This document shows, piece by piece, positions 30,580 through 53,449 of a DNA stretch of 64,000 nt. A program made the translations under genes and the position numbers. Every line of letters begins with the position of its first letter. The first letter of the stretch is position 1. The notes below the pieces were generated by a model. That model was not told the origin of the DNA, ran no database searches, and saw nothing but the letters and a program-made list of their open reading frames with translations. This DNA comes from Desulfobacteraceae bacterium UBA5616 (GTDB lineage Bacteria; Desulfobacterota; Desulfobacteria; Desulfobacterales; UBA5616), in assembly GCA_002423615.1 (NCBI GenBank), contig DIKO01000049.1:40264-104263 (forward strand), in the 5' to 3' direction.

Positions 30580-30815
30580 TAACATACCTCCTGATTAGGG
30601 TTGAGCTGTTCCTTTGAAGCAGTTGGTTTTACAACGGCATTCGGAAAAAAGTTCAACAAAATGAATGAAATTTATATAATAGATATTTAAAAAAATATTA
30701 TAAGTCAAGTTAAAAATAAAATCAGCTTTTTTGCCGGCCTTGCCTGCCATGAAGGGATTGGAAACATGGAGGTAGAACCGGTCATATCCAAAAAGACCCG
30801 ATTGGGTCATTGTCG

Positions 30816-30991: not shown

Positions 30992-33900
30992 ATGAGTTTG
31001 AAAGTCCCTGATTTTTCACCAGCGCAATGGGAATTTATAGCCGCAACCCAGGCCTTTGAGGAGCCGGTATCGGTTCATATCATCGGAGCCCTTGTGCCCC
31101 TGTCTCCGGGGGAAATTTTGGATCTGCTTCGAAAAAGCCTTAAATTAAAATGGATTCACAGATCCGAGGAAGACCTGTTTTCATTGACCGCAGATATTCC
31201 CGAGCAGGTGGCGGCTGTTTTACAGAAAATAAATACACCTGAAAAAATCGCGGGAATCATTGAATTTCTTGAAACAAAGGGGCTGGTGGAACAGGTTCCC
31301 GGGGGTGCATATGCCAGACTGCTTCAAAGATCCGGAAAAGAGAAAAAAGCCATCAGGCTGGAAATGGACATGGCCATTGAGGCGCTGAAAAAAGGAGATA
31401 AAGAAGGCGCTAAGGTCCACATCCAGCAAGTGGAGGCCCTGCTTCCCGCCATAGAAGGGTCCCCGGACAGTCATCCCTGGTTTATACAGAGCGCGATCGA
31501 ACTTTCACAACATTGCGAGGCGAGGGCGGTTGGATTTTCCCTGGTATTCGGCCTGTTGGAAAAAGTCCTTGTCATGGCCCACGGCATCGGCGATGAAAGG
31601 AGCTGGACCATCGCTAATTTCCTGCTCGGCAGGGCTTACTGGAGTGTGAATAAACTGCAGGAGGCCATTCAATTTTTATCCAGGGGCAAGGCCAAGGCGG
31701 AGGAACTCGGCGACAGCGATATCCTGACCCAATCCGCCCCGTTTGTCGGCATTTACTATTTTATTAAAGGTCTTCATAACCAGGCCGTCCCCTACCTTGA
31801 AATGGCGGTGGAGTTCGCCGAGGACAGCGACAAGTATCCCATGAATTTTGAATCCCCCATTTTACTCGCCTATTGCGACGTCGACCGGGGAGATTTCCAT
31901 CGGGCTATCGGGAAGATTGATTTTTTCAGGCATTCGGCCCTGCGGGTTGAGGATTACTACATCGCTTCGCTGTATCGCGCGGTTCTGGGCATCATCCTCT
32001 GGCTCATCAAGAAAAGAAAGGAATCCCTGTTCCATCTGGAGAGAAGCCAGACCGACGCTTTGGCCACCCAGAACATGGTAGCGTACTGGACAAGCCTTTA
32101 CGGTCTTTCCGCCTTATATTTGAGTGAAGGGGATATCGAAACAGGACTTGCCATACTGAAACAGGCAATAAAAATCGCTGAGCAATTCGGCATGGGGCAT
32201 CAAATTTTTCACTCCATTTTCCTTGAAAGCTATGCAACGGTTGAACAGGCCGGATGGAAGCTCCCCGCCGGTTGGAGCTTCAACGAACTATTTGAGCGGA
32301 TCATGAGGGAGCCGAATATCCATGTGCAAGGGGTGGCCTTACGTATCCGCGCCTCCAGGACCATGTTGATGTCGCCCTATGAATCCGCGCCGGTGATAAA
32401 GGACCTGGACCACAGCGAAGTGTTGTTGAAAAAATGCGGCGATCCCGTGGAACTGGCCAAAACCCATATTGAAAAAGCCCGGTATTATTTAAAGCAGAAA
32501 GATACGGAAAAGGCAAGGGAACTGACCTATGCGGCATACCAGTTGATGTCCGGATACAGTGAGGTTTTTTTTCCGGATGACCTTCGCTTTCTTCTGGGAG
32601 ATGAGAACAAGGAGATTCGGTCACGGCAGGAACCGGAGGATATGGTCGAACCCTTTGTCCGGATGCTGGAGGAACTGATCCCCGGTCCGTTCCAAACTCG
32701 GGAAATTGATGCCCTGCTGTCCACCCTTTCGCGGTTTTTCAGGGCTGAAAGATCAGCCTTGTTTTTATTTCAGGACCAGAAGGGGAAAAACTATGAAATA
32801 AAGGCTGCGAGAAATTTGTCGCAGAGCATTATTCAGGCTGAAAATTTTCGTGATAACCTGGCCGTCATCTTTAAAAGCGTTCACGAGAAAAAACCCATCG
32901 TCATTCAATCCAGCGGTGTACGAAATCGCCTGGCCTCGGGTAGCCGTTTATCCATGTTATGCCTCCCCTTGATAGAGGACAATAAAGTACTCGGCGTTTT
33001 GTACTTTGATAATTCCTACCTGGACAATTGCTTTGATTTTATCAAAACGCCGACCCTCAGCCGTTTGGGGCACTATTTGACCAACGTTATCGGAAATTAT
33101 TTGCGGATTGAACAGAGAGCCGCGTCCGTGGAAACGACCCCGCAGATGAACACCGTCATGGATATAGCGGGAAATCAAAATATTTTCGCCGAAGATCCCA
33201 ACATGAAGCGTATTTTGCAGCAGGCGGAAAAACAGGCCCGGTCGGATGCGGCCATTCTGCTCATGGGGGAGACCGGGGCCGGAAAGGAAGTACTGGCCAG
33301 GTGGATTCACCGCATGAGCAACCGGAAGCGAAACCCCTTTGTGGTGGTGGATCTGACGACCATCCCCGAGAATTTAATGGAAAGCGAATTGTTCGGGCAT
33401 GAAAAAGGCGCTTTTACGGGAGCGGACCACCAGAAAATCGGCCGTGTGGAATTGGCCCATCACGGCACGTTGTTCATTGATGAAATCGGAGAAATTTCAC
33501 GCGGTCTTCAGACCAAGCTCCTGAGACTTCTTCAGGAGAAATCCTTTGTCAGAATCGGGGGAACAAAGACCCTCATCTCCGATTTTCGGCTCATCTCCGC
33601 AACAAACCGCAATCTTACCGAAGAAATTGCCGCAGGTCGATTCCGCGAGGACCTGTATTATCGGCTGAATGTCCTTGAGCTCACCATCCCTCCCCTGAGG
33701 AACCGGAAAAAGGATATCCTGCCGCTGGCCCGGTATTATCTTCTCCATTATGCCAAAAAATACCATGTTTCAATGCCGGAGATCAACCAGGAACAAGAGT
33801 CGGCGCTTATGGAATATCATTGGCCGGGAAACGTCAGAGAACTTAAAAACGTTATTGAAAGAGCGGTCATTGTTGCCGACGGCGGTCCGCTTGAATTTGA

Positions 33901-34099
33901 TTTCACCCTGAGAAGCCTCGAACACGAAAACAACCCGTTCGCTGATTTACCAAGCCTGGACGAAATTCAACGCCGTTACATCCGATATGTCATGGAGCAC
34001 ACAAAAGGGAGAATCGGAGGTCCGGAAGGCGCAGCTGAAATCCTGGGGATGAAAAGGACAAGCGTCAATTCCAGGATGATTCGCCTGGGTTTGAAATAA
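30992..34099 (+). CDS. sigma54-dependent transcriptional activator (EBP-3), same architecture as EBP-1 and EBP-2
   Basis: GETGAGKE (from 33266), GAFTGA (33407..33424), FREDLYYRLNV, and the HTH AAEILGMKRTSVNSRMIRLGL. The GAF-like block includes LCLPLIEDNKVLGVLYFDNSYLDN. Confidence 0.9.
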   Translation: MSLKVPDFSPAQWEFIAATQAFEEPVSVHIIGALVPLSPGEILDLLRKSLKLKWIHRSEEDLFSLTADIPEQVAAVLQKINTPEKIAGIIEFLETKGLVEQVPGGAYARLLQRSGKEKKAIRLEMDMAIEALKKGDKEGAKVHIQQVEALLPAIEGSPDSHPWFIQSAIELSQHCEARAVGFSLVFGLLEKVLVMAHGIGDERSWTIANFLLGRAYWSVNKLQEAIQFLSRGKAKAEELGDSDILTQSAPFVGIYYFIKGLHNQAVPYLEMAVEFAEDSDKYPMNFESPILLAYCDVDRGDFHRAIGKIDFFRHSALRVEDYYIASLYRAVLGIILWLIKKRKESLFHLERSQTDALATQNMVAYWTSLYGLSALYLSEGDIETGLAILKQAIKIAEQFGMGHQIFHSIFLESYATVEQAGWKLPAGWSFNELFERIMREPNIHVQGVALRIRASRTMLMSPYESAPVIKDLDHSEVLLKKCGDPVELAKTHIEKARYYLKQKDTEKARELTYAAYQLMSGYSEVFFPDDLRFLLGDENKEIRSRQEPEDMVEPFVRMLEELIPGPFQTREIDALLSTLSRFFRAERSALFLFQDQKGKNYEIKAARNLSQSIIQAENFRDNLAVIFKSVHEKKPIVIQSSGVRNRLASGSRLSMLCLPLIEDNKVLGVLYFDNSYLDNCFDFIKTPTLSRLGHYLTNVIGNYLRIEQRAASVETTPQMNTVMDIAGNQNIFAEDPNMKRILQQAEKQARSDAAILLMGETGAGKEVLARWIHRMSNRKRNPFVVVDLTTIPENLMESELFGHEKGAFTGADHQKIGRVELAHHGTLFIDEIGEISRGLQTKLLRLLQEKSFVRIGGTKTLISDFRLISATNRNLTEEIAAGRFREDLYYRLNVLELTIPPLRNRKKDILPLARYYLLHYAKKYHVSMPEINQEQESALMEYHWPGNVRELKNVIERAVIVADGGPLEFDFTLRSLEHENNPFADLPSLDEIQRRYIRYVMEHTKGRIGGPEGAAEILGMKRTSVNSRMIRLGLK

Positions 34100-34226: not shown

Positions 34227-34242
34227 AGCTCCTTTATGGCAC
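34227..34242 (+). promoter_or_regulatory. sigma54 (-24/-12) promoter P3
   Basis: TGGCAC-ACAGA-TTGCA is an exact consensus match. It lies about 107 nt upstream of the 73-aa ORF and is preceded by an (AAAT)4 AT-tract at 34194..34210. Confidence 0.8.
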
Positions 34243-34348
34243 ACAGATTGCATTATCCTTCTTCAAATCTTATCGATTTATTTTCTGCAATCATTTTCAG
34301 AAGGTCATTCGCAATCAATTCCGACCAGCACTTTAAAGGGGGGGCGTA

Positions 34349-34570
34349 ATGAAAAGAATACTCAAGGACACCAAGGATTCAAAAAAAATTTTTAAGGACA
34401 TGGGAATGAACAAGTGGCGCGAGGTCGCCATTCCCAAAATCAAAAAGGGAGATCGATTCAGAATTTACTCTCAGGCCGGCCGTCCTCTTGAACTGGGGGG
34501 TGAAGAAACCCTTGTGGCCCAGTCCGACGCCTTTCAGGTCGACGGCGTCTGGGCTGTCGAAATCAACTGA
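34349..34570 (+). CDS. Small hypothetical protein (73 aa), first ORF behind P3
   Basis: MKRILKDTKDSKKIFKDMGMNKWREVAIPKIKKGDRFRIYSQ..., with an AAAGGGGGG RBS. No family was recognised. Confidence 0.5.
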   Translation: MKRILKDTKDSKKIFKDMGMNKWREVAIPKIKKGDRFRIYSQAGRPLELGGEETLVAQSDAFQVDGVWAVEIN

Positions 34571-35900: not shown

Positions 35901-35918
35901 CTGAAAAAGGAGCCATTG

Positions 35919-38047: not shown

Positions 38048-39619
38048 ATGAATCTTGCGGACGGACTGAGGATCAGTTCATGGAAGAACCCGGACAAGGT
38101 GGCGGCCGTGTTCGAAGAAAAACGCGTCACCTATGAGGAATTGAACAAAAGGGCCAACCGCCTTTCCCATGCCATGCTTCAAAAAGGATTTAAGCGCCAG
38201 GAAAAGGCTTCCATCATCATGTACAACAATATCGAATTCCTGGAAATTTACCACGGGCTGGCCCGGGCCGCACTCATTTCGGTGCCCGTGAATTTCAGAC
38301 TGGTTCCCGCGGAACTTGAATATGTGATCAACAATTCCGATTCAACCGCCCTTTTTATCGGCTGTGAATTTCTGGAAAAGGTCAATCTGAAAAATATCCC
38401 GATGGTCCGGAAGGATAATGTCATTGTTGTCGGACCCAGGGAGCAGACTCCGGCCGGGTTTATGAATTATGAGGATTTCATCGGCGGGCAACCCGAACAC
38501 GAACCGGACAACGTCCTTCAGCAGGAAAGCGATATATTTTATTTCGGCTATACCAGTGGAACGACGGGATTCCCCAAGGGAGCGATGAACACATCCCGGG
38601 GGACCATCGATATCATAAAAAACCTTTTTGTCCGAACCGGGAACCGGAAAGCGGTGGATCTGTCCAGCCGCGTTTTTCTGGCCATCATCCCCATCTGTCA
38701 CTCAAACAGCGTCTGGGCCACCTTGATCACCTTCTGGGTGGGCGGCACCAACGTGATTTTTCCATCGGGAAAATATGATCCTGAAAAGGTGTTGAAAACC
38801 ATATCCCGGGAAAAGGTGACCACCACGTCCATGGTGCCCACCATGATCACCCGGATCATGGAATTGCCGGATGAGGTTAAGAATCAATATGACATCAGTT
38901 CGTTGACTTCCCTGGGGTCTTCATCGGCGCCGTTGATGACGAAAACCAAGGAAGAAGCGCTTCAGTTCTTTAAAAACGTCCGTTTCAGCGAGGGGTATGG
39001 TTCAACCGAAACAGGCGCCCTGACCACCCTGCGCTTCAAGGACCAGAAACGGAAAGTCCGCAGCATCGGCCAACCCAATCCCGGAATTGAAATTAAATTG
39101 ATCGACGAAGACGGAAACGTGGTGACGGAACCCCATAAATCCGGGGTCCTGTGGGCAAAGACCCGGTCCGCATTCATCGGATATTACAAAGAACCCAAAA
39201 AAACCAGGGAATCCATTGACGGGGAGTGGTCCACTGCAGGTGATGTGGCCTATTTCGATGAAGAGGGCTACTATTATCTGAGCGACCGCAAACACGACAT
39301 GATTATTTCCGGCGGGGAAAATATTTACCCGGCGGAGATCGAAGAAGTCATCTCCAAACTTCCGGAAGTTTCAGAGGTTGCGGTGATCGGCATTCCCAAC
39401 GAGGAGTTCGGCGAGGAAGTCAAGGCCATTGTCAAGCTGGTTGAGGGCAAAGTCCTGACGGAAAAGCAGATACTGGACCATTGCAAGGAACATCTTGCGG
39501 GCTATAAGCGCCCCCGGTCCGTGGATTTTGTGACGGACTTCCCGAGAACAGCCACCGATAAAATACTCAAGAGACTGATTCGTGCGCCCTATTGGAAAAA
39601 CCAGGAACGAAACATTTAA
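38048..39619 (+). CDS. AMP-forming acyl-CoA ligase (ANL superfamily)
   Basis: YTSGTTGFPKGA (A3 motif), GYGSTE, YYYLSDRKHDMIISGGENIYPAEIE and PRTATDKILKR (A10 lysine region). GGAGG lies 8 nt upstream. Confidence 0.9.
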   Translation: MNLADGLRISSWKNPDKVAAVFEEKRVTYEELNKRANRLSHAMLQKGFKRQEKASIIMYNNIEFLEIYHGLARAALISVPVNFRLVPAELEYVINNSDSTALFIGCEFLEKVNLKNIPMVRKDNVIVVGPREQTPAGFMNYEDFIGGQPEHEPDNVLQQESDIFYFGYTSGTTGFPKGAMNTSRGTIDIIKNLFVRTGNRKAVDLSSRVFLAIIPICHSNSVWATLITFWVGGTNVIFPSGKYDPEKVLKTISREKVTTTSMVPTMITRIMELPDEVKNQYDISSLTSLGSSSAPLMTKTKEEALQFFKNVRFSEGYGSTETGALTTLRFKDQKRKVRSIGQPNPGIEIKLIDEDGNVVTEPHKSGVLWAKTRSAFIGYYKEPKKTRESIDGEWSTAGDVAYFDEEGYYYLSDRKHDMIISGGENIYPAEIEEVISKLPEVSEVAVIGIPNEEFGEEVKAIVKLVEGKVLTEKQILDHCKEHLAGYKRPRSVDFVTDFPRTATDKILKRLIRAPYWKNQERNI

Positions 39620-39797
39620 GGATTTTATCATTGTCCCATTTTTCACACAGCCGGAATATCTCATGCGAGAACACCATAATTCACCCCACCCGATCCGGGA
39701 TGGGATTGATGGTCTTGTTCCTGTACGTTCAATCACCCGGCAAATGAGACACTTGAACCCTCCGAGATAATTTTTACCATAAAAAAAGGAGAATGCC

Positions 39798-41096
39798 ATG
39801 AGTCAGGAAAAAGAAGTCAAAACCAAAGGATCGAAAAAATCCCTTCAGACAGCCCGGAATACGTTTAAATTCATCGTCGAGGACTACCTTCAGGGCCATG
39901 CCCATAAACAAGAGGGAAAGCCCGTCGTGTGGTCCTGCGCCCTTGCGGAAAAAGAACTTTTTTATGCCATGGGGCTTCACCCCTACTACCCGGAAAATTA
40001 TGCGGCGGTCTGCGCCACCCAGAGAAAAAACAGAGATCCGTCTGCAGAAAAGGAAGCGGTCCGTTTTGCCAAGATTGCCGAACAGGCCGGGTATTCCGCG
40101 GATTTATGCGGATATCAAAGGGTGGCTACCGGCTACATCATGAACGACGACCTGACCGATGCACCACTGGGGGGGATGCCCGCCCCGGATTTAATGGTGA
40201 CCACATCCAGCGTTTGCGATGTTCGCCTTAAATGGTTTGAAGACATGGCCCAGCGCCTGAATGTACCGCTTTTCACGCTGGATCGTCCGGAACGGGTTTT
40301 TAACGATATCCGGCGGCATCCCATGCCCCATGAAGTCAAATATTACAAATCCATTCTCGAGGACTACATGTCCTTTGTCACCGATGTTACCGGCATTCGA
40401 TACGATGAAGACCGGTTAAGGGAATGCATGGAATGGAGCTACAAAACCAATGAAGTCCGTTTGGAGATACTGGATCTGAGAAAAGCCGTCCCCTCACCCA
40501 TGGGATGTGCCGACGGGTTCGCCACCATGTATCCGGGCATGTACTGCTCGGGAACGGAAAAGGCCTACAACTACTACAAGGAACTGAGGGATGAGGTCAA
40601 GGCAAAGGTCCTTGCCGGGGAAGGCATCATTCAGAATGAGAAGTTCCGTCTCATGTGGTACGGGATTCCCCTGTGGTTCAATATGGGGATATTTAATTAT
40701 TTTGAAGATATCGGCGGCGTGTTCGCCTATGAACCGGCTTACAACCCCTCTCCCTGGCCGCAGTCGACAGGGGATGATCCCTTGACCGAACTGGCCATCC
40801 GCTCTCTTTACACCGGAACGTCGATGAGTTCCGGCATGAGTTCGATACTGGAACAATGCCGGGAATATCATATCAACGGAGCGGTGCTGGCCTTTTTATT
40901 GACCTGCCGACCGGTTTACCTGCCGGCGCTGGAAACCAAACGGATACTGGAAAAAGAACTCGGTATCCCCTCCGTGATGATCGAATGTGATCTGGTTGAC
41001 GAGCGGAGTTATTCCGAAGCCCAGGTTAAAACACGGATGGATGCTTTTGCGGAACAGATTCTAGGCCAATTGGAAGCGAAAAAGGAGGTGGCTTGA
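39798..41096 (+). CDS. Benzoyl-CoA reductase / 2-hydroxyacyl-CoA dehydratase family catalytic subunit (BcrB/BzdO/HgdA-like)
   Basis: 432 aa. GKPVVWSCALAEKELFYAMGLHPYYPENYAAVCA is typical of the N-terminus of this family (HGD-D type). Confidence 0.8.
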   Translation: MSQEKEVKTKGSKKSLQTARNTFKFIVEDYLQGHAHKQEGKPVVWSCALAEKELFYAMGLHPYYPENYAAVCATQRKNRDPSAEKEAVRFAKIAEQAGYSADLCGYQRVATGYIMNDDLTDAPLGGMPAPDLMVTTSSVCDVRLKWFEDMAQRLNVPLFTLDRPERVFNDIRRHPMPHEVKYYKSILEDYMSFVTDVTGIRYDEDRLRECMEWSYKTNEVRLEILDLRKAVPSPMGCADGFATMYPGMYCSGTEKAYNYYKELRDEVKAKVLAGEGIIQNEKFRLMWYGIPLWFNMGIFNYFEDIGGVFAYEPAYNPSPWPQSTGDDPLTELAIRSLYTGTSMSSGMSSILEQCREYHINGAVLAFLLTCRPVYLPALETKRILEKELGIPSVMIECDLVDERSYSEAQVKTRMDAFAEQILGQLEAKKEVA

Positions 41097-41097
41097 T

Positions 41098-42267
41098 ATG
41101 AACGAGATCTTTGCCCAGTATTGCAATAATCGCCATGATATGGCGCGAAAATGGAAGCAGGAAACCGGCAAAAAAGTGTACGGTTATTTTTGCTGCATGT
41201 CACCTGAAGAAATTCTGTTTGCAGCGGATATCCTGCCGGTGCGTATTACGGGAACCGGCGAGCCGCTTCAGAAGGCGGATCTGCATGTTCCCCCCAATTC
41301 CTGCCCCTTTGCCCGTTCCTGCCTGGATGCCGGAATGCAGGGGCATTACGATTATCTGGACGGGGTTGTGGTTCCCAACAGCTGCGATATTATTTTCAGC
41401 ATGGAATACCTTTGGAAGACCCTGGTCAAACGCCCCAATCCGCCTTCAATGGTGGGCGGAATCGACTTGAAGCCCTACGTTCACTATATCAATTACCCGG
41501 AAAAAATTAACAGCCGGGGAGTATTGCCGTTTTACAAGGAAGTTTTGAGCATATTCAAACAGGAACTGGAACGCGGCAACAACCGTCTCATTACCGATGA
41601 GGATATGTCCCGTGCCATAACGGCATACAACGATGACAAATTTCAACTCAAGCGCCTCTACGAGATGCGAAAGACCGACCCACCGGCAGTATCGGGGTTT
41701 GAAGCCTGGCAGGCCGTTTATGCCAGTATTTTGATGCCCAAGGACCAGCACGCGGCCCTGTTGAAAGAATCACTGGACGAGATCGAAAAAACCGGACGGA
41801 AAGCGGAAGAAGGCGTAAGGATTTATCTGTCCGGTTCGGCCATGGATCGGGTGAATGCCGATATCATCAAGGTCATTGAAGAGTGCGGCGGTCAGGTGGT
41901 CACCGACGACCTGTGCGTTGGCACACGCAGCTTCTGGTACCCCATCAGCACGGAATTACCGCCACTGGAAGCCATTGCCCGGCGCAGCCTGGGGACGGCC
42001 TGCCCCAGAAGCACGGTCAAGGAGCGGATCCCCGAGAACCGGTGGGCTCATATCGTGAACACCATAAAAGGATATGACGTTGAGGGGGCGATTTTTTACG
42101 TGTTAAAATGTTGTGACGCGCGACTGGGTGAATATCCGCATTTAAGAGACAAGATCAAGGAAGAAATGGGGTTGCCGTCCCTTTTTCTGGAAGGCGATTA
42201 CACCGCCGAAGGGGTTGAACAGATGCGGGGCAGGGTGGAAGCATTCATTGAAATGATCGGAGGGTAA
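41098..42267 (+). CDS. Benzoyl-CoA reductase / 2-hydroxyacyl-CoA dehydratase family catalytic subunit (BcrC/BzdN/HgdB-like)
   Basis: 389 aa. KKVYGYFCCMSPEEILFAADILPVRITG...CPFARSCLD. The start is 1 nt after the upstream stop. Confidence 0.8.
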   Translation: MNEIFAQYCNNRHDMARKWKQETGKKVYGYFCCMSPEEILFAADILPVRITGTGEPLQKADLHVPPNSCPFARSCLDAGMQGHYDYLDGVVVPNSCDIIFSMEYLWKTLVKRPNPPSMVGGIDLKPYVHYINYPEKINSRGVLPFYKEVLSIFKQELERGNNRLITDEDMSRAITAYNDDKFQLKRLYEMRKTDPPAVSGFEAWQAVYASILMPKDQHAALLKESLDEIEKTGRKAEEGVRIYLSGSAMDRVNADIIKVIEECGGQVVTDDLCVGTRSFWYPISTELPPLEAIARRSLGTACPRSTVKERIPENRWAHIVNTIKGYDVEGAIFYVLKCCDARLGEYPHLRDKIKEEMGLPSLFLEGDYTAEGVEQMRGRVEAFIEMIGG

Positions 42268-42270
42268 TCC

Positions 42271-43071
42271 ATGCCGTTTTATGCCGGGATCGATGTCGGC
42301 GCCCAGAGCATCAAGGTCGTTGTTTTTGACGGAGAAAAAATTCTGGGCGCCAGGATCGTCGTTACGGAAGACGAGGCCAATCGCGCTGCCCAGCGGATTT
42401 ATGAGGATCTTCTGGGTGAATTGAAGCTTTCCGGATCTGATGTCGAAAAAATATATGTCACTGGATGGGGCGCCGATGACGTTTTATTCGCCGACGGAAA
42501 AAGTTCGGAACAGGTTTGCGCCGCCAAGGGGGCCCGCTTTTTAATCCCGACGGCAAGAACCATTCTGGACATGGGGGCCGAAGGGTCCCGTGTCATGAAG
42601 CTTTCCGCCGACGGTATCCTGGAGGAATTCGTCAATAATTCGAAGTGTGCATCGGGAACCGGGTCTTTTATCGAACTGGGGGCCGTTTACCTTCAGGTCC
42701 CCATCGAACAAATGGGACCCCTGTCATTATCCGCCGACGGGTCTGCGGATGTCAGCAGCACCTGTGCCGTATTCGCCGAATCCGTCATTATTTCGAATAT
42801 TCACAAAGGGGAACCCCTTGAACGGATAGCCGCCGGAATTCATAAATCGGCGGCAACCCGCGTTTCGGAACTTCTGGGCAGGATCGGCAAGGTGGACGAC
42901 GTGGTATTCGTGGGAGGACCGGCGAAAAACCGCGGATTGGTCAGAATCCTGGAGGAAATGAGCGGTGTCTCCTTCAAGATCCCGGACAACCCCCAGATCG
43001 TTGTGGCCCTCGGTGCGGCTCTTCAGGCCTCCACGAAACAAAAACGAAAGCGCCGAAAGGGTGCAACGTAA
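42271..43071 (+). CDS. BadF/BadG/BcrA/BcrD-type ATPase (electron-activating subunit 1)
   Basis: MPFYAGIDVGAQSIKVVVF matches the ASKHA phosphate-1 motif. The cluster-bridging Cys contexts NNSKCASGTGSFIE and SSTCAVFAES are present. Confidence 0.85.
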   Translation: MPFYAGIDVGAQSIKVVVFDGEKILGARIVVTEDEANRAAQRIYEDLLGELKLSGSDVEKIYVTGWGADDVLFADGKSSEQVCAAKGARFLIPTARTILDMGAEGSRVMKLSADGILEEFVNNSKCASGTGSFIELGAVYLQVPIEQMGPLSLSADGSADVSSTCAVFAESVIISNIHKGEPLERIAAGIHKSAATRVSELLGRIGKVDDVVFVGGPAKNRGLVRILEEMSGVSFKIPDNPQIVVALGAALQASTKQKRKRRKGAT

Positions 43072-43097
43072 TTTTATTCATGCAAGGAATGAGACCT

Positions 43098-43877
43098 ATG
43101 TTTGTTGCGGGAATCGATATCGGATCAGCCGCCACCAAGGCAGTCCTGTTGAACCAGACGGAAATCGTCGCTTCTCATATCATTGAAACCGGGCCCAGGA
43201 GCCGGGCAACGGCGGAAGAAGCGATGAAGGGCATCCTGGAAAAAAGCGGGTTGAACAGCGGCGATCCGGGATATATTGTAGCCACCGGTTATGGCCGGAT
43301 CAATGTGCCCAGCGCCAATGAAATTATCACGGAAATCGCCTGCCATGCCAAAGGGGTGAACGCCGTTTTCCCCAAGGCCAGGACGATTCTGGATATGGGT
43401 GGACAGGACTGCAAGGCCATCCGCATTGACCACAAAGGCAGGCATGTGGCATTTGTCATGAACGACAAATGCGCCGCCGGGACAGGCCGGTTCCTGGATA
43501 TCATGGCCCAGATGCTGAAAGTGCCGCTGAGTGAAATCGGGCCTTTGTCCATGGAAGCCAGGGAAGATATCAAGATCAGCAGTGTCTGTGGGGTGTTCGC
43601 CAGGTCCGAGGTTGCCCGACATCTGAGACGGGGTGTGAGCAAGGCCGATATCCTGGGAGGACTGCACGCCTCGGTTGCAGACCGGGTTTACGGAATCCTA
43701 AAACGAGTCGGGATCGAAGAGGATTTCGTGATTTCGGGCGGAATCGGAAAAAACATCGGGGTCGTTAGGCGGGTCGAAGCCAAGGTCGGCCTTCCCGCTT
43801 ATATTTCTGATGAACCCCAGCTCATCGGTGCCTTGGGCGCCGCATGTTTCGCCAGGGAAAGGGTGAGCCAGGGGTAA
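43098..43877 (+). CDS. BadF/BadG/BcrA/BcrD-type ATPase (electron-activating subunit 2)
   Basis: MFVAGIDIGSAATKAVLL, MNDKCAAGTGRFLD and SSVCGVFARSE. It is distinct in sequence from subunit 1. The start is chosen at ATG 43098 (AAGGAA 8 nt upstream); the track ORF opens at 43080. Confidence 0.85.
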   Translation: MFVAGIDIGSAATKAVLLNQTEIVASHIIETGPRSRATAEEAMKGILEKSGLNSGDPGYIVATGYGRINVPSANEIITEIACHAKGVNAVFPKARTILDMGGQDCKAIRIDHKGRHVAFVMNDKCAAGTGRFLDIMAQMLKVPLSEIGPLSMEAREDIKISSVCGVFARSEVARHLRRGVSKADILGGLHASVADRVYGILKRVGIEEDFVISGGIGKNIGVVRRVEAKVGLPAYISDEPQLIGALGAACFARERVSQG

Positions 43878-46545: not shown

Positions 46546-46561
46546 TGGCATATCCATTGCA
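46546..46561 (+). promoter_or_regulatory. sigma54 (-24/-12) promoter P4
   Basis: TGGCAT-ATCCA-TTGCA with correct spacing, about 145 nt upstream of the thiolase-like start. Confidence 0.75.
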
Positions 46562-46707
46562 TAGTTATAATTACTCTTTTTTAATATGCAGGCCCATGCC
46601 CGGAAACGCAGCGAAATTTGAAGGCGGTTGATTTTTAAATTGCCGTAATACCGACAGTCTTTTTTGCGGACAGCTCATTTAAATTGATAACATGTGAGGA
46701 GGTTAGT

Positions 46708-47838
46708 ATGAGTCAAAAAGAATGTGCAATTGTCGGTCTAGGGTATACCCCCCAGGGAAAATGCCCGGACTGGAGCGTAAGAGAGCTTTTTCTGGAGGCC
46801 AGTGTGAATGCCATCAAGGATGCGGGTATGAAGCCCCATGATATCGACGGTATTCTGGTCGAACTCTGCTGGACCGATCCGACCACCCAAAACTGGTCTT
46901 TACAGATGGACCTGGGAATCCCCGAGCTGAGTCTTTCGGCGGTTTATGATTCCATGGGCGCATCTCCCGGATGCCAGATGCAGGTTGCCCAATGGGCCAT
47001 TCAAAACGGGATCTGCAAAAATGTTTTGTGTGCCTTTGTGGAAAAATCCGCAACAGCACCGGCGGTGCCATACCGCATGAGTGCCGGGCCGGGACTGGCT
47101 TACGGACTTCACGGCGCCATGCACGGTATCGCCCTGGCCGCCATGCGTCATAAAATGCTGTACGGGACCACCAGCGAACAGCTTGGGGAGGTGGCCGTAA
47201 CATTCCGGAAACACGCCCAGTTGAATCCCAAGGCCCAGATGTACGGCAAACCCATGACCCTTGCGGACCATCAGAATTCCCGGATCATTGCCGAACCCCT
47301 GCATCTTTTCGACTGCTGTCTGGTATCCGATGGTGGACGGGCCGCGGTTATTACATCGGGGGACCGGGCAAAGGATTGTCCTCAGCCGCCGGTTTATATC
47401 ATGGGATACGGTCAGGGTCATGTGAAGATGGATCTTATTGAAAGAAACACCCTGGTGGACACCGGAGCCGGAGTCTCCGGGGCACATGCTTTCAGGACCG
47501 CCGGTATCCAGCACAAAGACATCGATGTCCTGGGACTGTACGATGCCACCACCCATAACATCATCACCCAGCTCGAGGAACTGGGATTCTGCGAAAGGGG
47601 TGAAGGCGGGCCCTTTGTCGAAAACGGCCGTTTGTCCATTGATGGTGAATTCCCCACCAATCTTTCAGGTGGCATGCTCTCCGAAACCTACCTCCAGGGA
47701 TGGACCGGAATTCCGGAAATCGTCAGCCAGCTTAGAGGCCACTGCGGGGACCGCCAGGTCAAGGATGCCAAAATCGGGCTGGTCACCAACCAGGGCGGAT
47801 ATATCGCATTTCATTCAACTCTAATTTTGCGGAGGTAA
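46708..47838 (+). CDS. Thiolase-like protein (SCP-x / BbsB / Ltp-type)
   Basis: MSQKECAIVGLGYTPQGK..., with a C-terminal thiolase fold ending ...NLSGGMLSETYLQGW...GLVTNQGG. The start is at ATG 46708, after GAGGAGG. Confidence 0.8.
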   Translation: MSQKECAIVGLGYTPQGKCPDWSVRELFLEASVNAIKDAGMKPHDIDGILVELCWTDPTTQNWSLQMDLGIPELSLSAVYDSMGASPGCQMQVAQWAIQNGICKNVLCAFVEKSATAPAVPYRMSAGPGLAYGLHGAMHGIALAAMRHKMLYGTTSEQLGEVAVTFRKHAQLNPKAQMYGKPMTLADHQNSRIIAEPLHLFDCCLVSDGGRAAVITSGDRAKDCPQPPVYIMGYGQGHVKMDLIERNTLVDTGAGVSGAHAFRTAGIQHKDIDVLGLYDATTHNIITQLEELGFCERGEGGPFVENGRLSIDGEFPTNLSGGMLSETYLQGWTGIPEIVSQLRGHCGDRQVKDAKIGLVTNQGGYIAFHSTLILRR

Positions 47839-47844
47839 TCTGAT

Positions 47845-48270
47845 ATGACAACCCAGTTTAAAAAACCATCTCCCGGAATTACGCCGGAAACCAAGCCTTT
47901 CTGGGATGCTGCTAAAAGAAATGAATTCATGCTGGTCAAATGCGTGGGTTGCGGTTTTTACCGGAACCCGGTTTCCATCACCGCCAACATCTGCCCGGAA
48001 TGCGGGTCCAGAAAGCCGGGGGAATGGGTGAAGGCCAGCGGCAAGGGCAGGGTCCACACTTACACGGCGGTTCACCGGACTTTTGATCCTTCCTTTGAAA
48101 AAGAACTTCCCTATATCATCGTCATCGTCGAGCTTGAAGAAGGCCCGCGCTTTCTTTCCAACATGAGAGACGCAAAGCCGGAAGACATGAAACTGGACAT
48201 GCCCCTTGAAGTGGTCTTTGAAAAAGTCAGCGACGAGGTGACCGTTCCGTATTTCAAACCCGCAAAATAA
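47845..48270 (+). CDS. DUF35 OB-fold / rubredoxin-like zinc-ribbon protein (thiolase partner, BbsA-like)
   Basis: CVGCGFYRNPVSITANICPECGS is a zinc ribbon, followed by the OB-fold segment GKGRVHTYTAVHR. The protein is 141 aa and directly follows the thiolase-like gene. Confidence 0.8.
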   Translation: MTTQFKKPSPGITPETKPFWDAAKRNEFMLVKCVGCGFYRNPVSITANICPECGSRKPGEWVKASGKGRVHTYTAVHRTFDPSFEKELPYIIVIVELEEGPRFLSNMRDAKPEDMKLDMPLEVVFEKVSDEVTVPYFKPAK

Positions 48271-48283
48271 ATGGGAGGTTCCG

Positions 48284-49072
48284 ATGAATTATGAAGCCAT
48301 TCTCGTCGAAAAAAAAGGCCATATCACAATAGTGACAATAAACCGGCCCGAAGTGATGAATGCGGTAAGCCCCATCACCGGTCTGGAGCTTGAAACCGCT
48401 TTCAATGAATTCAACGAAGATCCCGAGGCATGGGTCTGTATCGTTACCGGCGCCGGTGACCGGGCTTTCTGCGTGGGAAACGATCTGAAGTTTCATGCGG
48501 AAAACTTCGCCCGGATGCCGGAGCTCTCGGCCAGATTAAAATACGGATTCGGCGGGATTACCGAAAGATACGACTGCTTTAAACCCATGATCGCGGCGGT
48601 TAACGGCATGGCCCTGGGCGGTGGTTTCGAGATCGCGCTGGCCTGTGATATCATCATTGCTTCCGAGAAAGCTGTTTTCGGCCTTCCCGAACCCCGGGTG
48701 GGACTCATGGCCCTGGCCGGCGGCGTGCATCGCCTTTCCCGTCAGATTCCCTATCACGTGGCCATGGGCATGATACTGGCATCCAGGCGCATTACCGCCC
48801 AGGAGGCTCTTAACTACGGGGTCGCCAACGAAGTCGCCGCCCCGGAGAAACTCATGGAAGTCGCCTTGAAATGGGCTGAGGAAATTCTTCTGAGCGCCCC
48901 CCTTTCCGTAAGGGCATCCAAGGAGTCGGTGATCAGGGGCAGCGATTTGCCTCTGGACAAGGCCATTTCCGCCCAATTTCCCGGTGTGATTAAAATGATG
49001 AATTCCCAGGATATGATCGAAGGTCCGACTGCCTTTGCACAGAAACGCAAACCCAACTGGAAGGGAAAATGA
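48284..49072 (+). CDS. Enoyl-CoA hydratase/isomerase (crotonase) family protein
   Basis: ITIVTINRPEVMNA, GAGDRAFCVGNDLK and AAVNGMALGGGFEIALACDIIIAS. Confidence 0.9.
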   Translation: MNYEAILVEKKGHITIVTINRPEVMNAVSPITGLELETAFNEFNEDPEAWVCIVTGAGDRAFCVGNDLKFHAENFARMPELSARLKYGFGGITERYDCFKPMIAAVNGMALGGGFEIALACDIIIASEKAVFGLPEPRVGLMALAGGVHRLSRQIPYHVAMGMILASRRITAQEALNYGVANEVAAPEKLMEVALKWAEEILLSAPLSVRASKESVIRGSDLPLDKAISAQFPGVIKMMNSQDMIEGPTAFAQKRKPNWKGK

Positions 49073-49099
49073 TCGATAGGATTATAAAAGGACTGTGCG

Positions 49100-49909
49100 A
49101 TGAAAACCTTATGTGAGGATCTAAGAAACGAACAGCAGGCCCTGGATGATATCATCGCTGAGATTGCAGACGCGGACTGGGAAAAAGATACCCCTGCCAA
49201 GGGATGGGCGATAAGGGATCAAATCGCCCATCTTGCCTTTTTCGATGAAAAAGCCAAAAAGACCATTATCGATCCGGAAGGATTTAAAGCCGAGCTTGAA
49301 GAAATGATGCGGAACCCACAAAAATTTCTTGATGTTATGAATAAACCGGCAATGTCAAGAACCGTTCCGGAATTAAAAGCCTGGTGGCGGAAAGAACGAT
49401 GGGACCTTGTGGAAGCCCTGTTACCGCTGGATCCCAGGGAACGGGTCGCCTGGTATGGCCCCCCCATGAGTGCCAGATCCCATGCCACGGCAAGAATGAT
49501 GGAAACCTGGGCTCATGGGCAGGATGTGGCCGATGCTCTGGGGGTAAAACGCCCGGCCACCGACCGTCTGAAGCATATCGCCCACCTGGGATATACCACC
49601 TTCAAATGGAGCTTCGTCAACCACCGGATGGCGGTTTCGGATGAGCAGGTGAGACTGGAACTGGTGAGCCCCTCCGGAGAGTTATGGACATGGGGGCCTG
49701 ATTCCAGTGAAAACCTGATCAAGGGGCCTTGTGAGGATTTTTGTCTTGTGGTGATTCAGAGACGGAACGTGGCTGATACGCGGCTATCTGTAACAGGGAA
49801 AACGGCGGGGAAATGGATGTCCATTGCCCAATGTTTCGCAGGTCCTGGAACCATGGGTCCTGATCCGGGAAAATTTCCCTTGGGGTCATTCTCTGATGGA
49901 TCCTGCTGA
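49100..49909 (+). CDS. DinB/MDMPI-like metal-binding protein (TIGR03084-like)
   Basis: The N-terminal four-helix region LRNEQQALDDIIAEIADADWEKDTPAKGWAIRDQIAHLAFFDE and ETWAHGQDV resemble the maleylpyruvate-isomerase N-terminal/DinB superfamily. The assignment rests on recall of family patterns only. Confidence 0.55.
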   Translation: MKTLCEDLRNEQQALDDIIAEIADADWEKDTPAKGWAIRDQIAHLAFFDEKAKKTIIDPEGFKAELEEMMRNPQKFLDVMNKPAMSRTVPELKAWWRKERWDLVEALLPLDPRERVAWYGPPMSARSHATARMMETWAHGQDVADALGVKRPATDRLKHIAHLGYTTFKWSFVNHRMAVSDEQVRLELVSPSGELWTWGPDSSENLIKGPCEDFCLVVIQRRNVADTRLSVTGKTAGKWMSIAQCFAGPGTMGPDPGKFPLGSFSDGSC

Positions 49910-49971
49910 AATATCATTTTAATTTGTACACTGTAGATGGACGTTTGAATTTTCAGGTTGGAGGGAAGAAC

Positions 49972-51159: not shown

Positions 51160-51196
51160 AAAGGACCCTGCCTACTCACGCCAAAGGAGATGTAAA

Positions 51197-53406: not shown

Positions 53407-53449
53407 TGTTTGCTCCTATCCGGGCACTCTCCCATCAAGGGGAGGAAAA

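Follow-up and report, generated by a model that had tools for sequence, protein, structure and literature searches.

A predicted ATP-driven iron-sulfur radical enzyme of four subunits, related to benzoyl-CoA reductase and 2-hydroxyacyl-CoA dehydratases, in a Desulfobacteraceae bacterium

The stretch of DNA analysed here (64,000 nucleotides, hereafter the window) carries between positions 38048 and 43877 five open reading frames, all on the plus strand, in which the original prediction had recognized a CoA ligase, a pair of HGD-D catalytic subunits (432 and 389 aa), and two different ATPases, each of about 260 aa; both the gene content and the coordinates were confirmed, with lengths of 266 and 265 aa for the ATPases (Table 1). 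Only 1, 3, and 8 nt separate the four subunit genes, each of which has a good or acceptable ribosome-binding site, and all four products gave Pfam and PDB matches. For ATPase 2, an alternative start at 43098 gives the protein of 259 aa called on the public contig. More than 20 loci from other genomes, the most distant with about 40% identity, carry the four-gene module in unchanged order, which indicates that these reading frames are real conserved genes rather than chance ones, and the cluster cysteines and the ATP motifs are kept across the orthologues. As far as the sequence can tell, the best explanation is that the locus encodes a complete and functional ATP-driven iron-sulfur radical enzyme.

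Table 1. Features of the locus (positions in the window)
Feature	Position	Strand	Evidence or remark
TPR-GAF sigma-54 enhancer-binding activator	30992..34099	+	Pfam Sigma54_activat 8e-66, GAF, TPR
Sigma-54 (-24/-12) promoter TGGCACACAGATTGC	34237..34251	+	Intergenic, before operon
73-aa ORF, first gene after promoter	34349..34570	+	Gene on public contig
HMG-CoA-lyase-like (HMGL-like) protein, 415 aa	34653..35900	+	Pfam HMGL-like 6e-26
Thiamine-diphosphate enzyme, oxalyl-CoA decarboxylase (OXC) / 2-hydroxyacyl-CoA lyase-synthase (HACL/HACS) type, 654 aa	35916..37880	+	Three TPP domains
AMP-forming acyl-CoA ligase, FadD-like, 523 aa	38048..39619	+	Pfam AMP-binding 3.8e-76, AMP-binding_C
Alpha (substrate-binding) subunit, 432 aa, 49.3 kDa	39798..41096	+	Pfam HGD-D 4e-61
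Beta subunit, 389 aa, 44.2 kDa	41098..42267	+	Pfam HGD-D 7e-81
ATPase 1, 266 aa	42271..43071	+	Pfam BcrAD_BadFG 3.9e-46
ATPase 2, 265 aa	43080..43877	+	Pfam BcrAD_BadFG 3.7e-59
Acetyl-CoA hydrolase/transferase-family CoA-transferase fused to GNAT acetyltransferase, 713 aa	43844..45985	+	Pfam AcetylCoA_hydro 4.9e-26, AcetylCoA_hyd_C 8e-63, Acetyltransf_1 8e-10; alternative start near 43889
Second sigma-54-type promoter TGGCATATCCATTGC	46546..46560	+	One consensus mismatch
Beta-oxidation-like operon	46684..52333	+	Pfam assignments; intergenic gaps 6-37 nt

The gene of the TPR-GAF activator, which is likely the operon regulator, lies directly upstream of TGGCACACAGATTGC, the sole match without mismatches to TGGCAC-N5-TTGC in the window. 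The position of this perfect promoter upstream of the HMGL-like gene suggests that the HMGL-like protein, the thiamine enzyme, the ligase, the four subunits, and the CoA-transferase are encoded in one operon; at the two points where its genes lie further apart, upstream of the ligase and of the alpha subunit, we found no further sigma-54 match and no terminator-like site on the plus strand. The 73-aa product of the first reading frame has no Pfam match and no cysteine. The HMGL-like protein finds its best PDB match in HMG-CoA lyase (1ydo, 5e-29) and stays under the NCBIfam cut-off. The top 19 PDB matches of the thiamine enzyme are OXC, HACL, or HACS, except two BbmA entries (8vzj, 5.6e-46; 7pt1, 5e-37), and true acetolactate synthases are reached only at about 1e-26. 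As for the ligase, the best NCBIfam model is the long-chain-fatty-acid-CoA ligase PRK06187 (433 bits), and the aryl-CoA ligase model gives only 232 bits of 1000. The CoA-transferase fusion gene directly follows the ATPases, a position kept in two of the related loci (L002 and L077), which are also the only ones, being the closest relatives, where the beta-oxidation-like operon occurs after the module. The latter starts 124 nt downstream of TGGCATATCCATTGC with an SCPx-type thiolase gene and further encodes a DUF35/ChsH2 OB-fold protein, an enoyl-CoA hydratase, a DinB/MDMPI-like protein, and two acyl-CoA dehydrogenases, the second of which falls in a 90% cluster with a protein named by JGI 3-oxocholest-4-en-26-oyl-CoA dehydrogenase beta subunit.

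In the alpha subunit, the predicted ligands of an open-site [4Fe-4S] cluster (C104, C140, and C370) and Glu66 align with C95, C128, C380, and Glu65 of BzdO; Glu66, the counterpart of the proposed proton donor, is invariant, as are D141 and R143 among 46 sequences. The clade shares the signature WSCAL, YPE(N/Q)Y, CGY(Q/E)R, VCDVRLK, YGIPxW, and TCRPV. The AF2 model (pLDDT, 92.9) presents the overall fold of the CoA-ester-binding subunits BzdO, HadB, and MbdO (TM, 0.82 to 0.85), while the NCBIfam scores are highest for HadB (165 bits, versus 110 for BcrB and 109 for BzdO), which the PDB search matched at 6e-36. The benzoyl-CoA-specific residues of BzdO (PMC11971306), namely, His131, Trp46, Gln274, and Glu381-Gly382, are replaced here by Arg143, Leu49, Ile290, and Arg371-Pro372, whereas none of these BzdO residues has changed in the canonical orthologues of the data set. 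The beta subunit has its best PDB match in BzdN (1.3e-56, 33% identity), and its six cysteines predicted to hold a double-cubane [8Fe-9S] cluster (C32, C69, C96, C273, C302, and C339) all align with the ligand positions of BzdN and DCCP, different from HadC and MbdN, which lack two and three of them, respectively. Sister clades have lost one double-cubane cysteine and retained the alpha signature; thus, the chemistry of this radiation is not linked to the double cubane.

The two ATPases are distinct and appear functional, each retaining the pair of cluster cysteines described in the original prediction, in the motifs KCASGTG (C126) and SSTC (C165) for ATPase 1 and KCAAGTG (C131) and SSVC (C170) for ATPase 2. 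In canonical Bzd loci, the counterpart of ATPase 1 is the first ATPase (the BzdP position), with which it groups and shares a GAE(G/E) phosphate-2 motif, and ATPase 2, with a canonical DMGGQD motif, groups with the second (the BzdQ position), although its score for bzdQ (TIGR03192) is 238 bits, short of the cut-off of 380. The pair and its Bzd-type counterparts go back to the same old duplication and have in common the GAEG variant of the GGQD phosphate loop. The architecture had been called intermediate because both ATPases are short, a view that does not hold, since two short distinct ATPases are normal in Bzd- and Mbd-type reductases (about 255 to 300 aa in canonical Bzd-type loci; 269 and 273 aa for MbdQ and MbdP in PDB 9gai) and the long BcrA is confined to the Thauera type.

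The enzyme has relatives in both benzoyl-CoA reductase and the 2-hydroxyacyl-CoA dehydratases but is a member of neither. None of the subunits reaches an NCBIfam equivalog or curated family cut-off, solved relatives share 22 to 46% identity with them, and every subunit tree places the enzyme in a separate clade, so that the clustering with a characterised enzyme at high identity for which the original prediction had proposed to look was not found. For the beta subunit and the ATPases, Bzd is phylogenetically nearer than Had. The enzyme is, therefore, intermediate in a different sense from the one first proposed, as a mosaic of a BzdN-type six-cysteine beta subunit, Bzd-type ATPases, and a HadB/MbdO-like alpha subunit. 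The close relatives all come from uncultured anaerobes, and relatives in the hundreds occur in Desulfobacterales, Dehalococcoidia, Nitrospinota, Bathyarchaeia, and Archaeoglobales; the view that such an ATP-dependent enzyme in a strict anaerobe is notable in itself is thus not supported.

Our leading reading, to which we give slightly less than an even chance, is that of a radical (de)hydratase acting on 2-hydroxyacyl-CoA. By homology to solved relatives, the ATPase heterodimer would hold a bridging [4Fe-4S] cluster on C126/C165 and C131/C170, and ATP hydrolysis would lower the potential of one electron, which would pass to the double-cubane-type cluster of the beta subunit and then to the open-site cluster of the alpha subunit, where the thioester carbonyl of the bound acyl-CoA would become a ketyl-type radical. 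The 2-hydroxyacyl-CoA would be formed or cleaved by the thiamine enzyme encoded in the same sigma-54 operon; the radical enzyme, using ATP and electrons only catalytically, would convert it to and from the 2-enoyl-CoA, and the product would feed the neighbouring beta-oxidation-like operon. We lean toward a dehydratase because of the preference of the alpha subunit for HadB, the CoA-transferase gene right after the ATPases, and the lack of a small ferredoxin gene in all 29 loci of the window and of the sister and related clades, versus 9 of 14 canonical Bzd loci that carry one after the second ATPase (Fisher p = 3.6e-6, the compared loci not being phylogenetically independent). A ferredoxin gene also occurs in the thn operon (PMC12016498). 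The ferredoxin absence is negative evidence. Against a dehydratase count the BzdN six-cysteine motif, the closeness of the beta subunit and ATPases to Bzd, the ATPase heterodimer, given that every characterised dehydratase has a homodimeric activator (PMC11574389), and the fact that MbdO, a genuine aryl-CoA reductase subunit, has HadB-like motifs, so that those of the alpha subunit do not exclude a reductase.

The same features would suit a new class I-type acyl- or aryl-CoA reductase, which we consider rather unlikely, in which each turnover would send two low-potential electrons from the ATPases, with stoichiometric ATP use, by way of the double-cubane beta subunit to a CoA ester other than benzoyl-CoA (a substituted aromatic, alicyclic, or conjugated enoyl substrate), and the downstream thiolase, hydratase, and dehydrogenases would degrade the product. 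Among characterised systems, two different ATPase subunits are known only in reductases (PMC11971306; PMC11574389), and the BzdN-type double-cubane cluster has been read as the multi-electron store of a reductase (PMC11971306); the invariant Glu66, the 2-oxoacid:ferredoxin oxidoreductase cluster 2 kb upstream, and the SCPx-thiolase/DUF35 pair with paired acyl-CoA dehydrogenases, of the kind used on bulky or branched CoA esters, also fit. However, the ferredoxin distribution, the loss of the BzdO residues, the FadD-like ligase, the HACL/OXC-type and HMGL-like operon partners, and the loss of a double-cubane cysteine in sister clades argue against it, as does the set of degradation genes, with one enoyl-CoA hydratase and no hydroxyacyl-CoA dehydrogenase in place of a dienoyl-CoA hydratase, hydroxyacyl-CoA dehydrogenase, and ring hydrolase.

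The module could also belong to the ketone-activation machinery of sulfate reducers without acting on 2-hydroxyacyl-CoA itself, its low-potential electrons or radical chemistry yielding an activated C1 (formyl) donor or driving a thiamine-dependent condensation, which seems improbable. In acetone proteomics studies, co-induced BCR-like, HMGL-like, and neighbouring proteins were proposed to make an activated formyl residue, and 2-hydroxyisobutyryl-CoA formation was not obtained in extracts with formyl-CoA or other C1 donors (PMC7888143; PMC8084838). In those organisms a B12 mutase already handles 2-hydroxyisobutyryl-CoA, and a dehydratase would therefore seem redundant; moreover, double-cubane proteins reduce small molecules (PMC7317905), and one related locus (L023) combines mutase, MeaB, thiamine enzyme, family III CoA-transferase, and module. 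On the other hand, the alpha fold is that of subunits binding CoA esters, such chemistry is not known in the family, and no B12 mutase occurs in the window. An ordinary Bzd-type benzoyl-CoA reductase, or an orthologue of another characterised enzyme (Mbd, Had, or DCCP), is highly improbable and was rejected at the sequence level, since the automatic JGI names of homologues ("benzoyl-CoA reductase subunit B/C") and the four-subunit composition and ATPase types common to Bzd are outweighed by the wide margins to all equivalog cut-offs, the low identities, the separate clades, the missing BzdO residues, and the different gene order and ferredoxin content.

Returning to the (de)hydratase, its link to 2-hydroxyacyl-CoA or ketone metabolism comes from the sigma-54 promoter, the OXC/HACL/HACS-type enzyme, and the neighbours of the module relatives, which adjoin family III CoA-transferases in five loci, B12 mutase and MeaB in L023 and L018, and thiamine enzymes in L019, L022, and L023, the last with only 27 to 29% identity to the one described here and without significant enrichment on their own (Fisher p = 0.23). 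By its gene set, the whole cluster also resembles the ketone-induced genes of sulfate reducers. On the other side weigh the context of HMGL-like, thiamine-enzyme, and thiolase genes, which beyond this locus is shared by the closest relatives alone (L002 and L011/L077), and the absence of a B12 mutase and of an SDR from the window. Of the substrates first envisaged, aromatic, alicyclic, or a 2-hydroxy acid activated as a CoA ester, only the last fits this context, because the FadD-like ligase, an alpha subunit with neither the catalytic residues nor the benzoyl pocket of BzdO, and the HACL/OXC-type and HMGL-like partners leave the others unsupported. The best explanation is that the enzyme derives from the Bzd-type benzoyl-CoA reductase lineage with a new catalytic subunit; the neighbouring genes suggest a role in ketone or 2-hydroxyacyl-CoA metabolism instead of aromatic ring reduction, and the substrate would most likely be an aliphatic 2-hydroxyacyl-CoA, possibly a tertiary 2-hydroxy-2-methylacyl-CoA.

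The four subunit genes of the module, which encode two HGD-D family proteins of 432 and 389 aa (alpha and beta, respectively) and two ASKHA ATPases (ATPase 1 and ATPase 2), are real, conserved, and intact. All five open reading frames that the original prediction had described at 38048-43877, the CoA ligase included, were found there, with Pfam E values from 1e-46 to 1e-81, and so were the Cys motifs of the two ATPases (KCASGTG/SSTC at C126/C165 of ATPase 1 and KCAAGTG/SSVC at C131/C170 of ATPase 2). The subunit genes are spaced by 1, 3, and 8 nt, and the module occurs in identical order at more than 20 loci of other genomes (labeled L002, L023, and so on), with identity down to about 40%.

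The sigma-54 promoter lies between a TPR-GAF sigma-54 activator and the genes that follow it, and neither a second sigma-54 site nor a terminator-like site on the plus strand was found in the longer intergenic stretches, of 167 nt ahead of the ligase and of 178 nt ahead of alpha. It follows from the single promoter, and from gaps devoid of a further promoter or terminator, that these genes likely form one operon, in the order 73-aa open reading frame, HMG-CoA-lyase-like (HMGL-like) gene, thiamine diphosphate (TDP) enzyme, ligase, alpha, beta, the two ATPases, and a CoA-transferase/GNAT fusion. The 73-aa open reading frame was rejected as a ferredoxin, having no Cys; the ligase is FadD-like rather than a benzoate- or phenylacetate-type enzyme; and an Rfam scan of the window gave zero matches. 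The last gene joins a CoA-transferase of the acetyl-CoA hydrolase/transferase family to a Pat-like GNAT acetyltransferase domain, and the AMP-forming ligase might be a target that this domain acylates and controls. Counted from its first ATG, the fusion gene shares 34 nt with the end of ATPase 2; the fusion is kept in L002 and L077, which are among the closest relatives of the window locus. The gene group behind the second sigma-54-like site comprises, besides the SCPx-type thiolase, genes for a DUF35 protein, an enoyl-CoA hydratase (ECH), a DinB-like protein, and two acyl-CoA dehydrogenases (ACADs).

Coordinates of the likely operon, the putative promoter sites, and other features of the window
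Feature	Position	Strand	Remark
DUF1329/LolA-like lipoprotein gene	11318-12529	-	
Sigma-54 activator, TPR-containing	12932-16075	+	
Sigma-54 activator, TPR-containing	20593-23889	+	
Oxidoreductase gene group	23917-29334	+	2-oxoacid:ferredoxin oxidoreductase at 26710-29334
DUF1329/LolA-like lipoprotein gene	29353-30585	-	
Sigma-54 activator, TPR-containing	30992-34099	+	GAF domain
Sigma-54 promoter	34237-34251	+	sole perfect TGGCAC-N5-TTGC match in window
HMG-CoA-lyase-like gene	34653-35900	+	operon gene 2
Thiamine enzyme	35916-37880	+	operon gene 3
AMP-forming CoA ligase, 523 aa	38048-39619	+	Pfam
Alpha, HGD-D family, 432 aa	39798-41096	+	PF06050, 4e-61
Beta, HGD-D family, 389 aa	41098-42267	+	PF06050, 7e-81
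ATPase 1, BcrAD_BadFG, 266 aa	42271-43071	+	Pfam
ATPase 2, BcrAD_BadFG, 265 aa	43080-43877	+	Pfam
CoA-transferase/GNAT fusion, 713 aa	43844-45985	+	last operon gene
Second sigma-54-like site	46546-46560	+	precedes SCPx-type thiolase gene group
Acyl-CoA dehydrogenase gene pair	49924-52333	+	
Downstream genes	52354-61713	-	
IlvD/EDD-family dehydratase	56920-58081	-	apparently split

The three sigma-54 activators are paralogous (1035 to 1098 aa, within 21 kb), and a separate catabolic gene group follows each of them; a GAF domain was found in the third alone. The oxidoreductase group at 23917-29334, which lies behind an activator of its own, consists of genes for a two-subunit 2-oxoacid:ferredoxin oxidoreductase, a Pyr_redox_2 protein, and a GltD-like NAD(P)H oxidoreductase that carries a ferredoxin domain. 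These proteins could feed the ATPases with low-potential electrons, and acetone induces oxidoreductases of a similar kind in Desulfotomaculum. The catabolic clusters lie between two genes for DUF1329/LolA-like lipoproteins; a member of this family also adjoins a 72%-identical thiamine enzyme in L084, which suggests uptake of a hydrophobic substrate. The adjacent acyl-CoA dehydrogenases (411 and 378 aa), the second of which falls in a 90% cluster with a protein named by JGI 3-oxocholest-4-en-26-oyl-CoA dehydrogenase beta subunit, hint that bulky or branched CoA esters are the substrates of a heteromeric dehydrogenase. Downstream, we could notice genes for an APH-type kinase, an alkyl sulfatase, a LarA-like protein, and a LutABC-like (CCG, LUD/Fer4, LUD) lactate-utilization set, besides an IlvD/EDD-family dehydratase present as a 264-aa N-terminal open reading frame and an overlapping one of 138 aa, which may represent a two-part enzyme or a frameshifted gene.

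Judging from the HGD-D pair, the three-Cys alpha subunit, and the two-Cys ASKHA ATPases, the window enzyme is a member of the BCR/HAD radical enzyme family, as had been proposed. Its place within the family is that of an uncharacterized clade. No subunit attains any NCBIfam equivalog cutoff, and in neighbor-joining trees (BLOSUM62 distances, without bootstrap, the references being those segments of PDB chains that HMMER had aligned) the clades of alpha, beta, and the ATPases each stand apart from every reference. Orthology with canonical BCR, Mbd, Had, or DCCP proteins was thus ruled out by cutoffs, identities, trees, and residues, and the clustering with a characterized enzyme that the original prediction had named as a possible objection was not found. 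The best relatives are 82 to 90% identical proteins of metagenome-assembled genomes (MAGs) of Desulfobacterales, and all close homologues found derive from MAGs or metagenomes of Desulfobacterales/Thermodesulfobacteriota, Dehalococcoidia, Nitrospinota, and others. Homologue searches, species-representative genomes, and a cluster look-up returned only generic names and no cultured or characterized relative; likewise, no isolate genome occurs among the 80 best species-representative loci.

The whole neighborhood is conserved only in L002 and L011/L077. In more distant members of the radiation, the module adjoins thiamine enzymes (L019, L022, and L023), family III CoA-transferases (5 loci), SDRs (7 loci), Zn-alcohol dehydrogenases and AdhE, or a B12 mutase (L018 and L023), with the order mutase, MeaB, thiamine enzyme, unknown gene, CoA-transferase III, alpha, beta, and ATPase in L023. 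In L008 and L010 (about 3900-12800), two four-gene modules stand back to back, one of the window clade and the other distantly paralogous (about 30% identity), with genes for a thiolase and a FadB-like ECH/3-hydroxyacyl-CoA dehydrogenase behind it, an arrangement that recalls "gene cluster B" of Desulfococcus biacutus. In L005, L006, and L009 (about 5900-8400), a gene of the HpaB/4-hydroxybutyryl-CoA-dehydratase family and an SDR gene lie directly upstream of alpha, joined in L005 and L006 by a Zn-alcohol dehydrogenase, so that the accessory set around the module differs from that of the window.

In alpha, C104, C140, and C370 occupy the positions of C95, C128, and C380 in BzdO of the BzdNOPQ reductase from Aromatoleum sp. 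CIB (PDB 8S02; PMC11971306), and they are invariant in 46 sequences; these three Cys are predicted to leave one Fe of the [4Fe-4S] cluster open. Of the catalytic and benzoyl-pocket residues of BzdO, only Glu65 (E66 in alpha) and Tyr97 (Tyr106) are kept. The other BzdO residues to which water activation and benzoyl binding are ascribed (PMC11971306) are replaced, namely, His131 by Arg143, Trp46 by Leu49, Gln274 by Ile290, and Glu381-Gly382 by Arg371-Pro372, whereas every one of them is retained in the true BzdO orthologues that were aligned together with alpha, which come from Archaeoglobales, Clostridiales, and other loci. In particular, the motifs GGAW, GEPY, CSYMR, ICCSH(A/S)K, DTQPPW, and GCEGL of the BzdO orthologues correspond to a signature of the alpha clade, WSCAL, YPE(N/Q)Y, CGY(Q/E)R, VCDVRLK, YGIPxW, and TCRPV, in which D141 and R143 form a pair invariant in the 46 sequences. 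The best NCBIfam model for alpha is HadB (165 bits against a cutoff of 750), followed by BcrB (110) and BzdO (109, cutoff 449), and HadB is also its best PDB match (6e-36), with HadB-like local motifs (WS.., YPEN, GIPxW, and xC(R/K)xx). Identity is 26 to 27% to HadB, MbdO, and BzdO alike (27% to the latter two), and the AF2 model (pLDDT 92.9) is equally close to all three folds (TM 0.82 to 0.85), so that the fold comparison does not discriminate among them.

The beta subunit is closest to BzdN (33% identity, 1.3e-56) and next to HadC (29%). In BzdN, as in DCCP, six Cys ligate an [8Fe-9S] double cubane, of which HadC keeps only a [4Fe-5S] remnant (Fuchs et al. 2025, PMC11971306). In our alignments, C32, C69, C96, C273, C302, and C339 of beta align with the cluster Cys of BzdN and DCCP; three of these six positions have no Cys in MbdN and two have none in HadC, which has Pro and Ala where beta has C32 and C273. 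Since beta possesses the two Cys missing from HadC, a double cubane rather than a [4Fe-5S] cluster is predicted. All six Cys are kept in every relative at least 55% identical to beta, and C273 is lost in sister clades at 41 to 52% identity. Model scores remain below the cutoffs for bzdN (199 bits, cutoff 454), HadC (177 bits, cutoff 700), and DCCP (NF040772; 204 bits, cutoff 350; alpha, 74 bits), and the seventh, non-ligand Cys of the DCCP 7-Cys motif is absent from beta.

As for the ATPases, the Cys residues that bridge the [4Fe-4S] cluster are kept in all orthologues and references. A neighbor-joining tree of 90 ATPases contains two old paralogue groups, one joining ATPase 1 with the first ATPase (BzdP position) and the other joining ATPase 2 with the second ATPase (BzdQ position) of canonical Bzd loci; MbdP and MbdQ fall outside both. 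The two window proteins are 37% identical, both genes are conserved, and HadI is the best profile and PDB match for both (39 and 46% identity); ATPase 2 gives 238 bits with the bzdQ model (cutoff 380). In its phosphate loop, ATPase 1 presents DMGAEGSR in place of the usual DxGGQD. This variant, of the form GAE(G/E), is kept in its orthologues and has its counterpart in the VIDVGAEEGR of the first ATPase of canonical Bzd loci; in the light of these alignments, the deviation is a trait of the family and not decay, and a nonfunctional ATPase, another objection raised beforehand, was ruled out. Because the loop is shared and conserved, both ATPase genes look functional and appear to encode a heterodimer of the Bzd-locus type. 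The original prediction had regarded two short, distinct ATPases as an intermediate architecture. That argument does not hold, as such sizes are normal in class I reductases of the Mbd type (269 and 273 aa for the solved chains of MbdQ and MbdP) and of the Bzd type (about 255 to 300 aa at the canonical loci of our data set). The accompanying lean toward an aromatic substrate falls away as well, and what stands is the family assignment, the functional-looking ATPase pair, and the lack of a characterized orthologue.

The comparison with known systems confirms that the window enzyme combines features that are elsewhere distributed among different enzymes. With BzdNOPQ it has in common four subunits, the Cys of BzdN and BzdO, and two short ATPases of the same two paralogue groups. 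However, the gene order in Bzd loci is N-O instead of alpha-beta, the TIGR0319x cutoffs of the Bzd subunits are all missed, and the context is that of a HACL-type thiamine enzyme and an HMGL-like lyase rather than of the lower benzoyl-CoA pathway. HadBC with HadI of Clostridioides difficile (PDB 3O3M and 4EHT) resembles the window enzyme in the alpha-beta gene order, in a CoA-transferase gene in the operon, and in the putative 2-hydroxyacyl-CoA substrate class. Different from Had, the window operon has two ATPase genes in place of one for a homodimeric activator, its CoA-transferase is of another family, it includes no 2-hydroxyacid dehydrogenase, and the host is a respiratory anaerobe of the Desulfobacterales type and not an amino acid fermenter. 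The 3-methylbenzoyl-CoA reductase MbdONQP of Thauera chlorobenzoica (PDB 9G87 and 9GAI) shares the gene order O, N, and two short ATPases, and MbdO resembles alpha in its HadB-like motifs and in lacking a His at the position of BzdO His131; yet, the identities with MbdO, MbdN, MbdQ, and MbdP are 27, 22, 35, and 36%, respectively, and the branches are separate and deep. DCCP with DCCP-R of Carboxydothermus hydrogenoformans (PDB 6ENO and 7YYL) likewise receives electrons from an ATP-dependent ASKHA ATPase, but it is a homodimer served by one ATPase gene and has no CoA-ester substrate; since two different HGD-D genes occur in the window, a heterodimer is expected here. Finally, tetrahydronaphthoyl-CoA (THNCoA) reductase (ThnBCDE) is an ATP-dependent class I-type enzyme of sulfate-reducing Deltaproteobacteria, encoded, as in the window, amid beta-oxidation-like genes. 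Its subunits carry names of the Thauera type (ncrCBAD). Its operon includes genes for MaoC dehydratases, for a ferredoxin, and for an oxidoreductase (PMC12016498), none of which was found at the window locus.

The thiamine enzyme is of the OXC/HACL type: its top 19 PDB matches (5.6e-46 to 1.5e-30) are oxalyl-CoA decarboxylases or 2-hydroxyacyl-CoA lyases/synthases, an actinobacterial 2-hydroxyisobutyryl-CoA lyase among them, except for two BbmA entries. A true acetolactate synthase was ruled out, as those score about 1e-26. Thiamine enzymes adjoin the module at 6 of 24 loci, compared with 1 of 14, a difference that is not significant (Fisher P = 0.23), and those of the sister clade are 27 to 29% identical to that of the window. 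Its homologues occur next to ACAD and thiolase/DUF35 genes, a ligase and an aldehyde:ferredoxin oxidoreductase, CoA-transferase III and ADP-forming synthetases, or HMGL and OAD-beta, and as four tandem paralogues, contexts that are all compatible with CoA-ester and formyl-CoA chemistry, none being decisive. The tandem set, of about 650 aa each, was found in one Bacillota MAG (L083, 2986-11997). In L084 (10001-20585), a 72%-identical enzyme lies behind a sigma-54 activator, with ligase, ACAD, thiolase, and tungsten-type aldehyde:ferredoxin oxidoreductase genes and with a DUF1329/LolA-like gene beside it; the radical enzyme is absent, and the gene set fits a lyase reaction releasing an aldehyde.

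As regards the reaction, we tentatively favor, with slightly less than even confidence, a (de)hydratase whose substrate would be a 2-hydroxyacyl-CoA connected with the thiamine enzyme. The HadB-like alpha, the CoA-transferase in the operon, and the HACL-type partner, whose 2-hydroxyacyl-CoA substrate class is that of the dehydratases, point in this direction, as does the distribution of small ferredoxin genes: one follows the second ATPase at 9 of 14 canonical Bzd loci and at 0 of 29 loci of the window clade and two neighboring clades (Fisher P = 3.6e-6, uncorrected for relatedness), and none was found within the 26 kb scanned at the window locus. The lack of a dedicated ferredoxin gene is the one indirect hint of catalytic, substoichiometric use of ATP and electrons. 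A new reductase consuming ATP stoichiometrically, which we deem unlikely, is favored by the double-cubane motif of beta, by the Bzd-type heterodimeric ATPase, and by the use of one homodimeric activator in all characterized dehydratases (PMC11574389). Sister clades drop a double-cubane Cys and still retain the alpha signature, and MbdN lacks double-cubane ligands although Mbd is a reductase, so that the chemistry cannot be read from the type of cluster. Some room is left for a different function altogether, and participation in the synthesis of the C1 donor for ketone activation appears distinctly improbable.

The gene context may be considered in relation to ketone metabolism. In D. biacutus, Desulfosarcina cetonica, Desulfotomaculum arcticum, and D. 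geothermicum, proteins induced during growth on acetone or higher ketones include a TDP-dependent "acetolactate synthase-like" enzyme, an AMP-forming acyl-CoA synthetase, thiolases, DUF35, ECH, 2-oxoacid:ferredoxin oxidoreductase subunits, a B12 mutase, an SDR, and an HMGL-like protein, the latter encoded beside the TDP enzyme in two Desulfotomaculum species (PMC4103992, PMC7888143, PMC8084838). Compared by gene type, the window has all of these except for the mutase and the SDR, and no B12 mutase, MeaB, or SDR was found in it; the composition of L023, likened in the same manner, is that of the acetone clusters of sulfate reducers. It is possible to hypothesize, although we judge it distinctly unlikely, that the window enzyme is an evolutionary and functional link between Bzd-type reductases and clostridial dehydratases in an undescribed oxygen-independent route of ketone assimilation, together with the thiamine enzyme and the HMGL-like protein. 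Such a route would pass beta-blocked carbon skeletons and assimilate methyl ketones: a 3-methyl-branched acyl-CoA would be dehydrogenated and hydrated, the lyase would release acetyl-CoA and a methyl ketone, the thiamine enzyme would formylate the ketone to a tertiary 2-hydroxy-2-methylacyl-CoA, the radical enzyme would dehydrate the latter to a 2-methyl-2-enoyl-CoA, and the SCPx-thiolase operon would degrade this product.

The potentials attained by BCR/HAD family enzymes come close to the limit of biology, and substrates are known for very few of them. The clade identified here has a combination of cofactor and subunits not yet described in a studied enzyme, lies in an unusual operon, and is widespread in uncultured Desulfobacterales, Dehalococcoidia, and Nitrospinota. 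It joins a subunit of the BzdN type, with its predicted double cubane, and Bzd-type ATPases to a catalytic subunit that appears not to be made for benzoyl-CoA, a combination that corresponds to the intermediate predicted by the published evolutionary scheme leading from a double-cubane protein through BzdNO to the dehydratases. If the enzyme were only a reductase for a minor substrate, its value would be mainly cautionary, in that automatic "benzoyl-CoA reductase subunit B/C" labels on such genes are not evidence of aromatic degradation in metagenomes. The operon partners tie the clade to the open problem of acetone and higher-ketone activation in sulfate reducers and of the roles of the co-induced "benzoyl-CoA reductase-like" and HMG-CoA-lyase-like proteins, and, as all candidate parts stand behind one promoter, the ketone question is testable by heterologous expression. 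A link to anaerobic metabolism of ketones or alpha-branched acyl-CoA, if confirmed, would raise the interest of the locus; were the proposed route true, it would provide a role for the ketone-induced "benzoyl-CoA reductase-like" proteins of sulfate reducers and a B12-independent alternative to the 2-hydroxyisobutyryl-CoA mutase step.
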